Assembly: GCA_021787125.1 (NCBI GenBank)
Contig: JAJYMI010000060.1
Location: forward strand, 950 to 64,949
DNA: 64,000 nucleotides
Origin: Thermoplasmata archaeon
GTDB lineage: Archaea; Thermoplasmatota; Thermoplasmata; Thermoplasmatales; GCA-001856825
Reading direction: 5' to 3'
In this document: piece after piece, positions 486 to 10,112 of the stretch
Layout of the letters: the number at the start of each line of letters is the position of its first letter
How positions within the stretch are numbered: the first letter of the stretch is position 1
Notes under the pieces: generated by a model
The model's input: the letters and a program-made list of their open reading frames with translations, nothing else
Database searches by the model: none
What the model was told of the DNA's origin: nothing
Translations under genes and position numbers: made by a program

Positions 486-1757
486 ATGACCAACCAAGAA
501 GGGGCATCCATGGATGGGTTGGGCACTACGCCGAGGAGGAAACTTCTAGTTGGTGGATTTGGGAATCTCTTCGCATCTACAACGGCTGCTGCGTTTGGAG
601 GATCAGTTTCAGCAGTAGCAGTGAACTGGATAGTTTACTCCTACACCCATAATGCTCTTTACATAGCTTATCTGGGAATGGCGGGAATCGTACCTGGAAT
701 TTTACTCGGTCTTCTCGCCGGAGTGATCGCTGATAGGTACGATAGAAAGATGCTCATGGTAACTTCCGACGTTGTCAGGATGATTTCCATGGGCTTTCTT
801 GCCTTATTCTTTCACTTTGTTGGATTCTCCTACCCTCTGATACTCGCGATCATGGTTGTCGTGTACACCTTCAGTACTTTTTTCCAGCCCGCCAGTCAGG
901 CCATATTACCAATGCTGGTCGACAAAGAGACACTGGAGGACGCCAACGGTATGCTTCAGGGTTCTTTCTATGTTTTTCAAGCAATCGGATCTGCAGCGGG
1001 AGGATTGATCGTGTATTATCTCGGGGCTGTCTGGGGACTCGGGATTAATTCAATGACTTACGCCATATCTGCCATGTTTCTCTTTCAGATTGTAGGCCAC
1101 TATAAGAGCAGAGCAACTGGCGGAGGGCAATCAAAACAAAACTCCTTTGCGAGCGATTTCAGAATTGGAATGAGATACATGAGAGAGCACCTTCCGATAC
1201 TCGAGGGAACAATAGGAGCTCTTCCTGCGAACTTCTTTGCAAGTCTTTTCTACCCCTTCTTTGTGGTTTACGCAGCCGTCAAATTCAGTTCAAATTCCGC
1301 GTCGTACGGATACCTGGTAGCCGCAATTGGTATGGGCATGGCTCTCGGTGCAATCTTGGTTGGACGCATCAAGGCGAGTAGGTACGCAGGACCACTCATA
1401 TCTTCATCGATTCTAGTCGCAGGGGGAATTGTGATTCTTTTCGGATTTTCCAACACTCTTTATCTTTCTCTGGTTGCGGGTGCAATAGCAGGCATAATGT
1501 TCGGTCTGCTCAATACGACTTATTTATCGACCGTCCAGGCATTAGTGCCTACAGAGTTACTGGCAAGGGTTCTTAGCATAGATTCGGTCGGTTCGTTCGT
1601 TGCAATTCCTGCAGGCCTAGCCGTAGGAGGAATCTTAATTTCTGCCCGTGGAATTGTCTTCGATTACACACTAGCTGGAATAGGTCTACTGTTGAATGGA
1701 ATCCTCCTCCTTTCTCTCAAGGAGTTCAGGAAATTCCGGTTCGTGCGGGAATCGTAA
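486..1757 (+). CDS. MFS transporter
   Basis: 423 aa with about 12 hydrophobic segments. DRYDRK-type loop after TM2 is typical of MFS. Confidence 0.8.
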   Translation: MTNQEGASMDGLGTTPRRKLLVGGFGNLFASTTAAAFGGSVSAVAVNWIVYSYTHNALYIAYLGMAGIVPGILLGLLAGVIADRYDRKMLMVTSDVVRMISMGFLALFFHFVGFSYPLILAIMVVVYTFSTFFQPASQAILPMLVDKETLEDANGMLQGSFYVFQAIGSAAGGLIVYYLGAVWGLGINSMTYAISAMFLFQIVGHYKSRATGGGQSKQNSFASDFRIGMRYMREHLPILEGTIGALPANFFASLFYPFFVVYAAVKFSSNSASYGYLVAAIGMGMALGAILVGRIKASRYAGPLISSSILVAGGIVILFGFSNTLYLSLVAGAIAGIMFGLLNTTYLSTVQALVPTELLARVLSIDSVGSFVAIPAGLAVGGILISARGIVFDYTLAGIGLLLNGILLLSLKEFRKFRFVRES

Positions 1758-2834: not shown

Positions 2835-5811
2835 TCCAGCTCCCAAGAAGGTCCTCATCATTGGCTCAGGCCCTATAGTTATTGGACAGTCTGCAGAATT
2901 TGATTATTCCGGGAATCAGGCGATCAAGGCGATAGTGAAAGAGGGGATAGACGTAGTGGTCGCGAATTCAAATCCTGCAACCATACAGACGGATCGCAGG
3001 GAAGGCATCAAACCAAAGATGGTGCCACTGAACGAAGAGAGTATGACCAGGTTAATCGATGAAGAAAGGCCAGATGCAATTCTCGGAACGTTTGGTGGTC
3101 AGACCGGACTGAACCTACTCGTCGAACTGTGGAAATCCGGAGTCCTTTCTTCTAGGAATGTCAAGATTCTCGGGACTCAACCAGAAGCAGTGGAGATCTC
3201 AGAAGACAGACTGAAGTTCAAGGAGAAGATGCAGGAGATAGGCGAACCGGTACTCGAATCTTACTACTGTTCCACACTTCAAGACTCAATAAAGTTCTCA
3301 AAACAGATTGGTTTCCCGATCGTAGTCAGACCGTCCTTCACGTTAGGAGGTTCTGGCGGAGGGATCGCTCATAACGTCGAGGAACTGAGGTCAATAGTGG
3401 AGCAGGGTATCTACCTGTCAGAGGTGGGGTCCATTCTCATAGAGAAATCCGTAATTGGATGGAACGAGCTAGAAGTGGAAGTTGTCAGGGACTCGTCAGG
3501 AAATAAGATTGCAGTCTGCACGATGGAGAATGTCGACCCGATGGGTGTGCACACAGGAGACAGCATAGTGGTGACTCCCTTCCTCACGCTCAACGACCTT
3601 CACTACCAGAGGATAAGAAGTGCAGCACTCAAGATTGCTGAGAGGCTCAACATTGTGGGTTCATGCAATGTGCAGTTCGCGTTCAATGACGGTACGGGGG
3701 AATACTACGTTATCGAGGTCAATCCTAGGCTGTCCAGGTCTTCAGCGCTCGCATCAAAAGCCACCGGTTATCCCATTGCAAGGGTAGCTGCACTGATATC
3801 TCTCGGGAAGAGACTCAGCGAAATAGAGAACACGGTGACTGGCGAAAGGAACGCTGCAAGGGAACCAGCAATAGATTATGTCGTAGTGAAATGCCCGGTC
3901 TGGCCCGTAGAGAAATTCCCCGAAGAGGACTTCAAGCTTGGGACACAGATGAAGAGTACGGGAGAGGCGATGAGCATAGGTAAGACGCTCTCTGAGGCAT
4001 TCAGAAAATCCCTCAGATCTACAGGAACAATGAACAGAAAGGTGACGTTTGATGAAAGTCTCCTGTCTATACCGAACCCCGAGAGGGAACTGCAGATCTA
4101 TGAGGCATTCAAGAGGGGCTATACGCTGGACAAGATATCCTCTCTTACTGGATGGAAGAAGCTCTTTGTTAGCGAGTTAATCTCCGCGTTCGATGCAGAG
4201 TACACCTCTTCCGGTTTCTCGGTTGTCGACACCTGTGCAGGAGAGTTCGATGTAAAAACTCCGTACTACTATTCTTCGGATCCAGGGAACAAGATTGCTG
4301 GAGACGTGATCGTCCTGGGAGGCGGACCAATAACGATTGGCCAGGGTATAGAATTCGACTACAGCTGTGTGCACATTTCTCAAAGGCTCAGGAAGAAGGG
4401 CTTCAGAGTGATAATGGTGAACGACAACCCAGAAACGGTCTCGACGGATTTCGACGAGAGTGACTTCCTTGTTTTTGACCCCGTGGATTTCGAGACTGTG
4501 AGGAACGTGGTACTGAACTCGACAGCAAGATACCTGGTACCATGGTTTGGGGGACAGAAACCGATAAACATGCTCAAGAGGATACAGCAAGAATTCGGAG
4601 ATAGGTTGAAGATTCTGGGTACGAGCGTGGAGTCTATAGACACACTCGAAGTCAGGGAAAAGTTTGCGGTCCTGATGAGGGAGATGGGCATCCCGTATCC
4701 CGAATACCAGTTCGCTTCGACGGACACATTCATGACCGAGATTGGGAAGCTATCTTTCCCAGTCATAGTGAGACCATCGTACACCATCTCAGGTGCCCAC
4801 ATGGCCGTTTTGAAATCGCAGGAAGAGGCCGAAGAGTACCTAAAGTTCCACGGCAGATTTGTCAAGGAATTTCTTGTTGAGAAATATCTTGAAAATTCCA
4901 TAGAGGCAGAGTTGGATGGAGTATCTGATGGAGAAAGGGTCCTGATTCCAGGGATCATAGAACACATAGAGGAGGCTGGAATACACTCTGGGGACTCCAC
5001 CAGCATATTCCCGTCAAAGAACATACCGAACCACATTCAGGAGACGATGAAGGAATACACGAAACTCATCTGCAGAAGACTTGGCATAGTTGGCCCCATA
5101 AATATACAGTTCGCCATAAAGGACAACATCGTTCACATAATAGAGATAAACCCGAGGTCGTCGAGAACGTTCCCTTTCGTTTCCAAGATTTCAGGAATAA
5201 ACCTCTCTGAGATCGCGGCTGATGTTCTCCTGGGGGAGAAGCTGACTAACAATCCGCCCACCAGAGAACTGGTTGGAATAAAAGTGCCAATATTTCCGTT
5301 TGACAAATTGAAGGGATCGGACGTGATTCTGGGGCCAGAAATGAAGAGCACCGGGGAAGTGATAGGAATGGGAAGAGACTTGAAGAGTGCCCTCCTCAAC
5401 GGCTACGAGGCTGCTGGATACGACATTACCAAGGAGGGAGTGATAATCTCCATTACTTCGACGAAGATCAACGAGTTTCTGGGGATAGTCAAGATAATCA
5501 ACGACTCAGGGAAGGTCATATACAGTACAGAAGGAACTCATGATAAATTATCAAGATACGGCATCAACACCGTAAAAATCAAGAAGATTTTCGAGGGCAG
5601 TCAGAATCCGCTGGACATACTGAAACTGGGAAACATCTCAGGAGTCATAAACATACTCTCTGAAAATTATAAATCGGAGAACGACGGAAAACTCATGAGA
5701 AGAGCGTGCTATGAGAGGAGGGTCCTATACATGAGTACAAGAACACAGGCGGCAGCATTTGCCGAGGTCATTTCCAAAGAATTCGTCGAATCAAAGGCGG
5801 GAAATGACTGA
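2824..5811 (+). CDS. carB: Carbamoyl-phosphate synthase large subunit
   Basis: 995 aa with duplicated ATP-grasp halves (IEVNPRLSRSSALASKATGYPIA and IEINPRSSRTFPFVSK) and a C-terminal MGS-like domain. Confidence 0.95.
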   Translation: MSVDPAPKKVLIIGSGPIVIGQSAEFDYSGNQAIKAIVKEGIDVVVANSNPATIQTDRREGIKPKMVPLNEESMTRLIDEERPDAILGTFGGQTGLNLLVELWKSGVLSSRNVKILGTQPEAVEISEDRLKFKEKMQEIGEPVLESYYCSTLQDSIKFSKQIGFPIVVRPSFTLGGSGGGIAHNVEELRSIVEQGIYLSEVGSILIEKSVIGWNELEVEVVRDSSGNKIAVCTMENVDPMGVHTGDSIVVTPFLTLNDLHYQRIRSAALKIAERLNIVGSCNVQFAFNDGTGEYYVIEVNPRLSRSSALASKATGYPIARVAALISLGKRLSEIENTVTGERNAAREPAIDYVVVKCPVWPVEKFPEEDFKLGTQMKSTGEAMSIGKTLSEAFRKSLRSTGTMNRKVTFDESLLSIPNPERELQIYEAFKRGYTLDKISSLTGWKKLFVSELISAFDAEYTSSGFSVVDTCAGEFDVKTPYYYSSDPGNKIAGDVIVLGGGPITIGQGIEFDYSCVHISQRLRKKGFRVIMVNDNPETVSTDFDESDFLVFDPVDFETVRNVVLNSTARYLVPWFGGQKPINMLKRIQQEFGDRLKILGTSVESIDTLEVREKFAVLMREMGIPYPEYQFASTDTFMTEIGKLSFPVIVRPSYTISGAHMAVLKSQEEAEEYLKFHGRFVKEFLVEKYLENSIEAELDGVSDGERVLIPGIIEHIEEAGIHSGDSTSIFPSKNIPNHIQETMKEYTKLICRRLGIVGPINIQFAIKDNIVHIIEINPRSSRTFPFVSKISGINLSEIAADVLLGEKLTNNPPTRELVGIKVPIFPFDKLKGSDVILGPEMKSTGEVIGMGRDLKSALLNGYEAAGYDITKEGVIISITSTKINEFLGIVKIINDSGKVIYSTEGTHDKLSRYGINTVKIKKIFEGSQNPLDILKLGNISGVINILSENYKSENDGKLMRRACYERRVLYMSTRTQAAAFAEVISKEFVESKAGND

Positions 5812-8200: not shown

Positions 8201-8755
8201 CTACTTCTGAATCCTTTCGGGATTTGGCCACGGGAAGATCGTCTCTGATATCTTTCTCCTCTTGTTTACAGCGAGTGCCATCATGAAAATCAGAGAAGAT
8301 AGCCTGTTCATATACTGAAGCGAGAGTGGATTGCATTTTTGGTCCACGTTGAGCTCCACCAGTCTTCTTTCGGCTCTTCTGGTCACTGCTCTGGACAGCT
8401 GGAGTGTAGCAGCTTCTTGTGATCCTCCTGGGACAACGAACAACTTGATCTCTCCTATCTCCTTCAGATATGTGTTGATCCTGCCCTCCATCCAAGACAC
8501 CGACTCGTCTCTAAGCTTGCGCCCATTGCCTGAGGTTAAGATCTCTTCGCCAAGGTGGAACAGGTCCAACTGCACCTGGTGGAGATCACTCTTCATGTCA
8601 TCCCAGGACAATTGAACTTTAGAATAGCCTATCTGCGATATCAGTTCGTCCAGGGTACCTTCCCACTCAATGACAGGGGTGTCCTTCGATAATCTCTTTC
8701 CAGATGGAGTATCAGTTTCTCCAGTGTCTCCGCGTCTTGAATACACGTGTTGCAA
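8201..8755 (-). CDS. ATP:cob(I)alamin adenosyltransferase, PduO type
   Basis: N-terminus YSRRGDTGETD...KD..IEWEGTLDEL is the PduO/MMAB signature. Start is TTG 8755 or GTG 8746. Confidence 0.85.
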   Translation of the reverse strand: MQHVYSRRGDTGETDTPSGKRLSKDTPVIEWEGTLDELISQIGYSKVQLSWDDMKSDLHQVQLDLFHLGEEILTSGNGRKLRDESVSWMEGRINTYLKEIGEIKLFVVPGGSQEAATLQLSRAVTRRAERRLVELNVDQKCNPLSLQYMNRLSSLIFMMALAVNKRRKISETIFPWPNPERIQK

Positions 8756-8940
8756 TCATTTTCCCATATTTCTTATTTTAGTGAACTTCGCACCTCATGA
8801 GTCCAGTCTTGGCTCGGGATGAAATTGATACACATCTTGATAACGATGCTAACTCCCACACAACTTCAGATCTCTATTGATGTGCGGGTAAGGGAAGGAA
8901 AGAACTATTCAAAAGGACGTAATTCTATCCTAAGTCTGCA

Positions 8941-9004
8941 GGAGCAGTGTGATGAATTTAGCCTTAACTGAGTATGATGAGTGACAGGCGATCTGATCTG
9001 CTCC
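8941..9004 (+). ncRNA. C/D box sRNA (2'-O-methylation guide RNA)
   Basis: Layout: C box GTGATGA 8949-8955; 12-nt guide 8956-8967; D' CTGA 8968-8971; 3-nt linker; C' TGATGA 8975-8980; 12-nt guide 8981-8992; D CTGA 8993-8996. A perfect 7-bp terminal stem, GGAGCAG 8941-8947 / CTGCTCC 8998-9004, closes it. Confidence 0.8.
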
Positions 9005-9015
9005 TTTGGTTTTCT

Positions 9016-9555
9016 TTACAGCCGGTGCTTGTTCATCGCATCGAAGAACAGATCAAAATTACCATTCTCGAACGCTTCTCTAATCATCCTGTAGAATAGC
9101 GAAGTATCCGTGTCAGGAAGCAGTCCATTGATCGCGAGTAATACCCTCTGTTTGGCAGAGATCAACTCCTTGAGGTTGCCTTCGAGGAGCCTAATCTTGT
9201 TGTCTATATCTTTCAGTTGTACGATGAGTTCCTGTAAGTTTCCTTCAAGACTCTCCGTCTCCTCTTCTTCATTGTCGAAGACGGAAATGCTCTCGATAAA
9301 TTGTAGGAGTGAAAGGAGAGGGTGATTGGCCTTATAGAGGATCCTTGGAGGCCCTTCATCCGACTCTATCTTTCCGACCTTAAAGACAAGACCACTGTCT
9401 TCCAGTAGTCTGATGTGTTTTGCTATCAGTTGCTGTGAGCTTCCGAGGGACCTTGCAAGTTCGAATGTGTAAGAAGGCCTAATCGACAGAATGCTCAGTA
9501 TCCTTCTCCTTATGTCATTGTCTATTAGATCCAGCAGATCGGTCGACATGTTCAC
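9016..9555 (-). CDS. Winged-helix (ArsR/Phr-like) transcriptional regulator with C-terminal coiled coil
   Basis: wHTH region (RRRILSILSIRPSYTFELARSLGSSQQLIAKHIRLLEDSGLV). Start GTG 9555 or ATG 9549, abutting the hsp20 stop. Confidence 0.7.
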   Translation of the reverse strand: MNMSTDLLDLIDNDIRRRILSILSIRPSYTFELARSLGSSQQLIAKHIRLLEDSGLVFKVGKIESDEGPPRILYKANHPLLSLLQFIESISVFDNEEEETESLEGNLQELIVQLKDIDNKIRLLEGNLKELISAKQRVLLAINGLLPDTDTSLFYRMIREAFENGNFDLFFDAMNKHRL

Positions 9556-10112
9556 TCTATTGGAATTCTCCTCCCTTCTCTCTTCTTTGTTGGGGGTTTC
9601 TTTACTATCACATCAAGGACACCATTGGAGTATGAGGCCTTCACGTTTTCCGGAAGGGCATCATTTTCGAGCTCAACTTCCTTGTAATATTTTCTTCCCT
9701 CTTTCTCCACTTTCACGATGAGAACATTGTCGCTCGTTTCGATCGAAATGTCGCTCTTTGAAACACCAGGAATTTCCATGGTGATGTCTGTCTCATCCTC
9801 TCTCCGCTGGATATCTGTAATCGGTTCTCTGTACTCCAAGCTGGGAAGTTCTGCGTGCTCTGAATCCTCTCTAGGAATGTTACCAAATTCCTTGAACTCG
9901 GGTTTTCCATCAGTTCCCAGTCGGTAAGTGAAACCATAAACGTAAGTTCCGGGCTGATCCTGCTCCTTTATATTTTCAATCTCGTCGAAAGTATCAAACC
10001 ATCTCTCTATGAATTTTCTGTATTCTCTGTCACTGTTTTCTAGGAAGTCCTGGATATCGTTCCAGAAGTCATCATCTTTTCTTCTAATCTTTCTATTAAC
10101 CATGTTTACCAC
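9552..10112 (-). CDS. Small heat-shock protein (Hsp20/alpha-crystallin family)
   Basis: Alpha-crystallin domain (ITMEIPGVSKSDISIE...ASYSNGVLDVIV). ATG at 10103 is a possible true start. Confidence 0.85.
   Translation of the reverse strand: MVNMVNRKIRRKDDDFWNDIQDFLENSDREYRKFIERWFDTFDEIENIKEQDQPGTYVYGFTYRLGTDGKPEFKEFGNIPREDSEHAELPSLEYREPITDIQRREDETDITMEIPGVSKSDISIETSDNVLIVKVEKEGRKYYKEVELENDALPENVKASYSNGVLDVIVKKPPTKKREGRRIPIE

Follow-up and report, generated by a model that had tools for sequence, protein, structure and literature searches.

An unannotated box C/D guide RNA conserved in Thermoplasmatales, with 16S rRNA C1402 as the predicted target of its D guide

The DNA analysed here is a stretch of 64,000 nucleotides (the window) from the contig JAJYMI010000060.1 of a Thermoplasmata archaeon MAG. 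Between two genes of the minus strand lies a 260-nt gap, and positions 8941-9004 of its plus strand carry the layout of a box C/D RNA, with boxes C, D', C' and D, two 12-nt guides, a 3-nt linker and a terminal stem of 7-8 bp. A Cob_adeno_trans gene is found upstream of the sRNA, and an ArsR-type HTH gene followed by an HSP20 gene downstream. The initial annotation had named these neighbours in the same way, and a Pfam search confirmed the ArsR-type HTH and HSP20 domains. The features of the locus are as follows.

8201-8755, minus strand: Cob_adeno_trans gene, upstream of the sRNA, with its start toward the gap
8897-8914, plus strand: candidate BRE/TATA-like element GGAAAGAACTATTCAAAA, a block conserved within the genus whose end lies 27 nt upstream of the stem, with a putative promoter function
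8940-8947, plus strand: 5' strand of the terminal stem, (A)GGAGCAG, pairing with 8998-9005
8949-8955, plus strand: box C, GUGAUGA, of which UGAUGA is invariant in 33 aligned orthologs
8956-8967, plus strand: D' guide AUUUAGCCUUAA, 12 nt, with the family-conserved core AGCCU, predicted to pair with 16S 900-908 or 1486-1495
8968-8971, plus strand: box D', CUGA, from the sequence reading and the ortholog alignment
8972-8974, plus strand: D'-C' linker GUA, 3 nt (K-loop), varying freely in orthologs
8975-8980, plus strand: box C', UGAUGA, invariant in the ortholog alignment
8981-8992, plus strand: D guide GUGACAGGCGAU, 12 nt, predicted from pairing and covariation with 16S 1404 to be directed at 16S C1402
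8993-8996, plus strand: box D, CUGA, invariant in the ortholog alignment
8998-9005, plus strand: 3' strand of the terminal stem, CUGCUCC(U), pairing with 8940-8947
9005-9017, plus strand: T-rich tract UUUGGUUUUCUUU, a possible oligo-T terminator, abutting the stop codon of the ArsR-type gene
9016-9555, minus strand: ArsR-type HTH gene, with its stop (codon 9016-9018) toward the gap, convergent with the sRNA
9552-10112, minus strand: HSP20 gene, next after the ArsR-type HTH gene

Read along the plus strand, 8941-9004 has the order GGAGCAG-U-GUGAUGA-AUUUAGCCUUAA-CUGA-GUA-UGAUGA-GUGACAGGCGAU-CUGA-U-CUGCUCC, and the pairing of A8940 with U9005 lengthens the terminal stem to 8 bp. Every box, guide and stem strand stands where the initial annotation had placed it when it described a full C/D architecture on the plus strand, and both guides are exactly 12 nt long, matching the archaeal spacing rule that it had invoked. 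We conclude that 8941-9004 is a genuine, unannotated archaeal box C/D guide RNA.

The sequences on either side of the RNA suggest how it may be transcribed. There is no gene on the plus strand close upstream, and the RNA therefore needs a promoter of its own. A canonical TTTAWATA motif is not present upstream of the sRNA, in agreement with the initial annotation. The same annotation had suggested that the RNA may be processed from a longer transcript; this idea finds no plus-strand gene upstream that could serve as a source, and the conserved A-rich block at 8897-8914 stands where a BRE/TATA element would be. Among loci of the same genus the block GAAA(A)GARCTAWKCAAR is conserved, while the adjacent bases drift, and orthologs from other families have purine-rich and A/T-rich tracts at the same distance from the sRNA. 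Directly 3' of the stem, a T-rich run is kept in the group-A loci of the genus.

This canonical layout occurs once in the genome. A strict four-box pattern with spacers of 10-13 nt matched once in the 1,402,476 bases of the MAG, both strands included, and a looser scan for box C, box D and a terminal stem of at least 5 bp returned the same single match; neither search gave a match in the reversed-genome control. By a back-of-envelope estimate, chance alone would produce the strict pattern about 1e-5 times per genome. When Rfam was searched with permissive thresholds, the matches to the sRNA were almost only to C/D-box families, all on the plus strand and all below gathering, the best scores being those of snoPyro_CD (33 bits, E = 2e-5, gathering 45) and sR2 (27 bits); at gathering thresholds the sRNA had no match. 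Since the RNA is unannotated and falls below every Rfam threshold, a covariance model built for it would improve the annotation of many MAGs. The minimum-free-energy fold of the sRNA is unremarkable (z = -1.3), as expected because the structure of a C/D RNA consists mostly of its terminal stem and k-turns. Elsewhere in the window, 5187-5221 on the plus strand matched the S4-Bacteroidia ribosomal-protein leader just above gathering (35.2 bits against 34.7, E = 0.0014). The host being an archaeon, this match is probably a false positive.

Searches of related genomes indicated that the RNA is widely conserved. A 141-nt query found a match in all 24 sampled genomes of the family ("I-plasma" Thermoplasmatales), and in the distant genomes of the family only query positions 42-106 aligned, which is exactly the sRNA. 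The core made of C' box, D guide and D box matched 21 records among GTDB representative genomes, and a pattern search across the order recovered orthologs in most families. Phylum-wide, the D guide was found in 36 of 36 genomes of another family of the class, in 3 of 4 genomes of a second family and sporadically elsewhere. Conservation of the locus was a check that the initial annotation had proposed, and the boxes are indeed conserved in relatives, both in the family and in the order. Across 33 aligned orthologs no box position changes; drift is seen in the D'-C' linker and at the outer ends of the guides. The linker reads GTA, TCA, ACA, TAA, GGA, AAT and others, with a length of 3-5 nt, and this free variation is what an unconstrained loop should show. 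The 12-nt spacers are found in all listed orthologs, with the exception of the f4-g4 genomes, where the D' spacer is 11 nt.

The terminal stem is kept in all 45 distinct orthologs. It has 5-9 bp (mean 7.1) and occurs in 29 different sequences, among them GGAGCAG/CUGCUCC, GAAGCGG/CUGCUUC, GCCCC/GGGGC, GCCAC/GUGGC, ACCGC/GCGGU and AUCAC/GUGAU; a control with the 3' flank reversed gave a mean of 1.8 bp. Judged from the aligned sequences, the stem is maintained by compensatory changes. Synteny with the ArsR-type gene is kept in genera g1, g11 and g13 and more weakly in g12, and the identity of the ArsR-type protein goes down to 44-65% where the adjacency to the sRNA is kept. The D guide is identical in all 17 listed genomes of genus g1. 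In f4, f7 g10 and f7 g28 the D' guide has been replaced altogether while the D guide is kept, which argues that the predicted C1402 function is the conserved core of this RNA.

One part of the order departs from this distribution. In f7 g7 and in six near-complete f7 g8 genomes the pattern search found no ortholog of the C1402 guide; either the guide has been lost there or its boxes are variant. A BLAST match in one of these genomes (G024, locus L129) lies within an apparent coding sequence and was rejected as an ortholog. The 16S of f7 g7/g8 (e.g. G024, G027, G051, G054, G057, G066) retains the target, and its helix 27 reads GCAAGACUGAAAC (G903A).

The target search was carried out on the rRNA of congeners because neither a full 16S nor a full 23S could be detected in the MAG; a 3' fragment of its 16S is found on contig C3 of the MAG. 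All 16S numbering is that of E. coli and was fixed by alignment to E. coli rrsH. The first clue came from a distant ortholog (G038), whose D guide GAGACGGGCGGG is complementary to the universal 16S stretch that surrounds E. coli C1402. The initial annotation had considered the 16S segment CCGCCCGUCAC for the D guide and set it aside for its 2 mismatches. That region is, on the present evidence, the target after all: the 16S of the genus reads ACACCGCCUGUCAA, with U where the near-universal C1404 stands, so the central mismatch disappears and nine contiguous Watson-Crick pairs remain. Position 1 of the D guide pairs with A1398 and positions 3-11 with C1400-A1408, which places C1402 opposite guide position 5, that is, at N+5. 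The target ACCGCCUGUCAA is present on the genome's own contig (C3:76-93) with the same sequence as in the congeners, and the duplex predicted for the genome's own D guide has an energy of -17.7 kcal/mol on the U1404 target versus -13.0 kcal/mol on a C1404 target.

Complementarity of this length is not decisive. Shuffled guides reached the score of the 9-bp pairing in about 6% of trials in 16S and in about 16% of trials in 16S and 23S together; because the match is not significant by itself, the assignment of the D target rests on covariation and orthology. Position 7 of the D guide and 16S 1404 form an A/U pair in 18 genomes and a G/C pair in 19, with no discordant case among the 37. Three additional f4-g4 genomes, which had escaped the pattern search because of their 11-nt D' spacer, were recovered separately and have the A/U pair as well. 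A/U is the state seen in family f1 (four genera), within f4 in g4 only, and within f7 in g16; it is also seen in f7 g22, where guide and 16S were read from two different genomes. Since G/C sister genera stand beside each A/U lineage, the state switched at least three times. The partner of 1404, 16S 1497, switches from G to A in the same lineages, which implies that a base pair of the decoding helix and the guide changed together. The replacement of C1404-G1497 by U-A in several lineages, accompanied each time by a G to A change in the guide, is a clean record of co-evolution, and illustrates that covariation can assign the target of a short guide where complementarity alone cannot. Collectively, these data make 16S C1402 a well-supported predicted target of the D guide.

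Some 16S sequences of the order are unusual in this region. U1404 replaces C1404 in family f1, in f4-g4 and in f7 g7/g16/g22 (loci L034, L035, L037, L036, L038 and L032; C3:1-200 in the MAG itself). A1497 replaces G wherever it could be read, namely in f1, f4-g4, f7-g7 and contig C3. Family f1 also has G1410-C1490 where others have A-U.

Other candidates for the D guide were tried and rejected. The initial annotation had recommended aligning both guides with rRNAs and tRNAs, and what this yielded was the 16S match with its nine contiguous pairs; the 23S target and the tRNA-Asp and tRNA-Ala candidates did not hold. For the anticodon arm of tRNA-Asp(GUC) (from ...GCCUGUCAC), no perfect 12-mer beyond the gene's own antisense was present in 41 relatives, and the arm of the tRNA-Asp-like gene that the MAG itself carries on contig C89, CGAGUCUGUCGAGCUCG, does not fit the D guide. 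The 8-mer AUCGCCUG shared with tRNA-Ala(UGC) is at about chance level and leaves the conserved guide positions 9-12 unexplained; this candidate was superseded by the 16S site. A site near 23S position 2115 (GCAGCCUGUCGC) is at chance level and has no support from ortholog guides.

The D' guide of most orthologs, xTTCAGCCTTxx, forms 9-10 Watson-Crick pairs with GCAAGGCUGAAA (16S 898-909, helix 27), with G902 at N+5. The energies of these duplexes range from -12.8 to -16.8 kcal/mol, versus about -8 to -9 kcal/mol at alternative sites, and the helix 27 segment of the 16S is identical in all four genera of the family. This part of the 16S is missing from the MAG itself, and the target was read from congeners. 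In the genus studied here position 9 of the D' guide is U and not C, so that the pair with G906 becomes G.U, and the duplex of the MAG's own guide with 16S 900-908 has 9 pairs, one of them G.U, at -11.5 kcal/mol, no better than at 16S 1486-1495 (-11.8 kcal/mol) or at a 23S H35-like site (-10.7 kcal/mol). We take 16S G902 as the probable target of the D' guide; for this genome it is the candidate favoured by orthology. A site near 23S position 857 (UAAAGGCUAAUC, 8 Watson-Crick pairs) was also considered for D' and rejected, being at chance level and without support from ortholog guides.

Two other targets have been weighed against G902. In the initial annotation the D' guide was aimed at the 23S domain I segment CCAAGGCUAAAUAC, where a G would be methylated. 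E. coli 23S does have AAGGCUAAAU at 422-431, complementary to 10 nt of the D' guide; the lineage itself, however, reads CCAACCCUAAAUA and not CCAAGGCUAAAUA. The homologous segment is CCAACCCUAAAUA or CCAACUCUAAAUA in the genus (G001, G010, G013, G015), in genus g13 and in family f5 (one 23S each for the last two), so that the GG is replaced in relatives, including the very nucleotide predicted to be methylated. Eight loci with 23S genes were scanned, and none has GGCUAAA or GGCUGAA at this position. On these rRNA sequences the domain I target is refuted for the relatives examined, and we regard it as having almost no chance of being correct. Better placed, though still unlikely, is a shift of the D' guide within this genus, whole or partial, to 16S 1486-1495 (AGGGCUAAGU, which includes A1492/A1493), leading to Gm1488; the two guides would then address both strands of the same decoding-centre helix. 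The MAG's own guide forms 10 pairs with this 3' strand of helix 44, two of them G.U, and at -11.8 versus -11.5 kcal/mol it ties with helix 27 in predicted energy; the site is present on contig C3 of the MAG. The C to U change at guide position 9 is specific to the genus, and it both weakens the helix 27 duplex and creates a U-A1492 pair. Against such a shift, the other genera of the family have identical 16S at both sites and their guides, xxTCAGCCTTAA, fit only helix 27; the guides of subgroup B of the genus (CCTAAG, CCTAGG) lose pairs equally at both sites, and matches as good as this one arise by chance. By orthology, G902 stays the favoured D' target.

A box C/D RNA would act together with proteins, and fibrillarin and L7Ae are both encoded in the MAG. 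A Nop domain (Nop5) was not found in this genome; the gap is attributed to incompleteness because the MAG is 83% complete and Nop5 is present in most relatives (16 of 18 congeners, 37 of 41 relatives). The fibrillarin gene (contig C37:13313-13873, L089) abuts an AAA ATPase gene (proteasome-activating-nucleotidase-like, 345 aa) and not its usual partner nop5.

Starting from what was observed (the anatomy of the RNA, its conservation, the covariation in the stem and between guide and target, and the presence of fibrillarin and L7Ae), we infer its transcription, its assembly into an RNP and the methylations as follows. An sRNA of about 65 nt would be transcribed from its own promoter on the plus strand. 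Boxes C and D with the terminal stem would fold into a k-turn, and boxes C' and D' with the 3-nt linker into a K-loop; these elements would bind L7Ae and recruit a Nop5 dimer and two copies of fibrillarin. The D guide would pair with 16S A1398 and C1400-A1408 at the top of helix 44, so that C1402 faces guide nucleotide five, counted upstream from box D, and fibrillarin would make Cm1402 in the decoding centre. In the ancestral arrangement, found in most of the order, the D' guide would pair with 16S A900-A908 in helix 27 and lead to Gm902. We consider this overall explanation, a C/D sRNA of about 65 nt with a D guide for Cm1402 and an ancestral D' guide for Gm902, to be likely, and hold it with good confidence. 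The dual guide may also hold the h27 and h44 segments together during assembly, a role that is possible because helices 27 and 44 line a common cavity of the 30S.

The most sceptical alternative is that short motifs have come together here by chance, or that the locus is a dead, unexpressed relic. The lack of a canonical TATA box would fit this view. It is nevertheless hard to reconcile with one match in the genome against none in the control, with boxes that are invariant across an order-wide alignment in which the linker drifts, or with compensatory changes both in the stem and between the guide and the 16S; its probability is negligible. An RNA that is real and functional could still serve as a folding chaperone of pre-16S, or as an assembly checkpoint, bridging h27 and h44 without methylation at either. 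For C/D sRNAs of archaea, dual guides that bridge rRNA segments and chaperone roles are under discussion (PMC7994747), N. equitans sR13 has been proposed to act as a similar RNA-based checkpoint at 16S A1408/A1534 (PMC5389701), and h27 and h44 are neighbours in the 30S (PMC7005279). This reading is, however, difficult to square with the strict retention of the boxes and of the 12-nt spacing that sets the N+5 geometry, with the retention of fibrillarin, and with the Cm observed at this position in P. abyssi (PMC7005279). Methylation and a chaperone role are not mutually exclusive, and we judge a purely structural role to be very improbable.

A related proposal concerns this genus, where the sRNA is predicted to pair with 1398-1408 (5' strand of helix 44, at its top) through its D guide and with 900-908 or 1486-1495 through its D' guide. 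It could serve as a clamp or checkpoint made of RNA, preventing the decoding helix from zipping up until late 30S assembly, besides or instead of making Cm1402. It would then be the sole rRNA-directed guide for which the whole C/D RNP is kept in the lineage, since tRNA-Met and tRNA-Trp are what the two other guides address. We regard this as doubtful, and Cm1402, with Gm902 in the ancestral arrangement, stays our preferred reading.

The predicted D target is a nucleotide whose modification is known from bacteria, an archaeon and eukaryotes. The 2'-O-methyl group at the equivalent of C1402 is shared by E. coli (m4Cm1402), T. thermophilus, P. abyssi (16S Cm1376, an observed archaeal case), yeast (Cm1639) and human (Cm1703) (PMC7005279 Table 4). 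Bacteria use a protein for this purpose and eukaryotes a snoRNA. In E. coli, m4Cm1402 is made by RsmH and RsmI (PMC11551388; PMC11542601), of which RsmI methylates the same ribose at the P-site/decoding centre as a stand-alone protein, not guided by RNA. Yeast Cm1639 is made by snR70 (PMC5199042), and snR70 and the plant U43-type snoRNA guide this same nucleotide (18S Cm1639 and Cm1645, respectively), the human site being the same (PMC5199042; PMC11542601; PMC7005279 Table 4); these are eukaryotic snoRNAs, and a likeness to the sRNA is claimed for the target only. The RNA described here is a conserved predicted archaeal guide for C1402 in Thermoplasmatales, and its D guide is also found elsewhere in the phylum, in other families. 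At the equivalent of 1404, P. abyssi has hm5C (PMC7005279), a modification that is impossible in this lineage because its base there is U.

The D' target can be compared with a eukaryotic site as well. By our count, yeast Gm1126, the snR41 site, would be the first G of GCAAGGCUGAAAC and hence the equivalent of E. coli G902. The guiding of 18S Gm1126 by snR41 is documented (PMC5199042; PMC8307265), and the site belongs to an intersubunit bridge (PMC8307265). In archaeal 16S, helices 3, 18 and 27 are conserved hotspots of predicted methylation, and Dennis et al. 2015 found sparse predicted helix 44 sites (E. coli A1408, G1494) and no C1402-directed guide in seven archaea (PMC4644070). The helices h27, h44 and h45 line one cavity in the 30S of P. 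abyssi (PMC7005279), and a dual guide toward h27 and h44 fits the bridging idea (PMC7994747) because those helices share this cavity. The sR13 RNA of Nanoarchaeum equitans is likewise a dual guide to the 16S 3' minor domain beside the decoding centre (A1408, A1534), with a proposed role as an assembly checkpoint (PMC5389701); its target nucleotides are different and there is no sequence relation.

With known archaeal box C/D sRNAs (snoPyro_CD, RF00095; sR2, RF01139) the RNA shares the four boxes, two 12-nt guides, a short K-loop linker, a terminal stem, a length of about 60 nt and the L7Ae/Nop5/fibrillarin machinery of the lineage. It differs from them in reaching no Rfam gathering score (33 versus 45 bits) and in its host group, moderately thermophilic or mesophilic acidophiles with very few guides, in contrast to hyperthermophiles, which have dozens of guides. 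Our literature search found no description of Thermoplasmatales C/D sRNAs.

Scans of the MAG found three C/D guides, namely this sRNA, an sR-tMet-like RNA and a tRNA-Trp intron, and such a near-minimal set lends itself to asking which functions make the C/D RNP indispensable. The second sRNA lies at C89:28428-28482 on the minus strand and reads GTGATGA-GAAGAGGGTCAG-CTGA-GCTAAGGCTG-TGATGA-CCCCTATGAGTG-CTGA; its linker is 10 nt long and its terminal stem weak. The sequence ACUCAUAGGG, which spans the exon-intron junction of a tRNA-Met gene, is complementary to the D guide of this sRNA and has C34 at N+5, and the RNA looks like an sR-tMet ortholog. The intron-containing tRNA-Met gene itself is on C8 (about 9436-9535), with a copy on C59, and was miscalled by Aragorn as Ser(aga). 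The third guide is the 66-nt intron of tRNA-Trp (C18:14957-15097, minus strand), which has degenerate boxes (C = UUGAUUA, D = AUGA) and a D guide, UUAACUGGAGCG, complementary to GCUCCAGUUA at the exon-intron junction (C34). Orthologs of this intron guide with canonical boxes form a second order-wide family.

Two further observations concern tRNA genes of the MAG. The tRNA-Asp(GUC)-like gene on C89 (about 770-843, minus strand, 73 nt) has normal acceptor, D and anticodon arms, but its T arm is aberrant (CGGGA-CACUGCAGCGAC-UCCCG). The gene is missed by Aragorn, and the MAG yielded no further tRNA-Asp. Near-duplicate tRNA clusters (Ala-UGC, Ser-CGA, Thr-UGU) are present on C21 and C90, and tRNA-Val(GAC) and tRNA-Gln(CTG) each occur twice. 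The duplicated clusters suggest strain heterogeneity or redundant contigs in the MAG.
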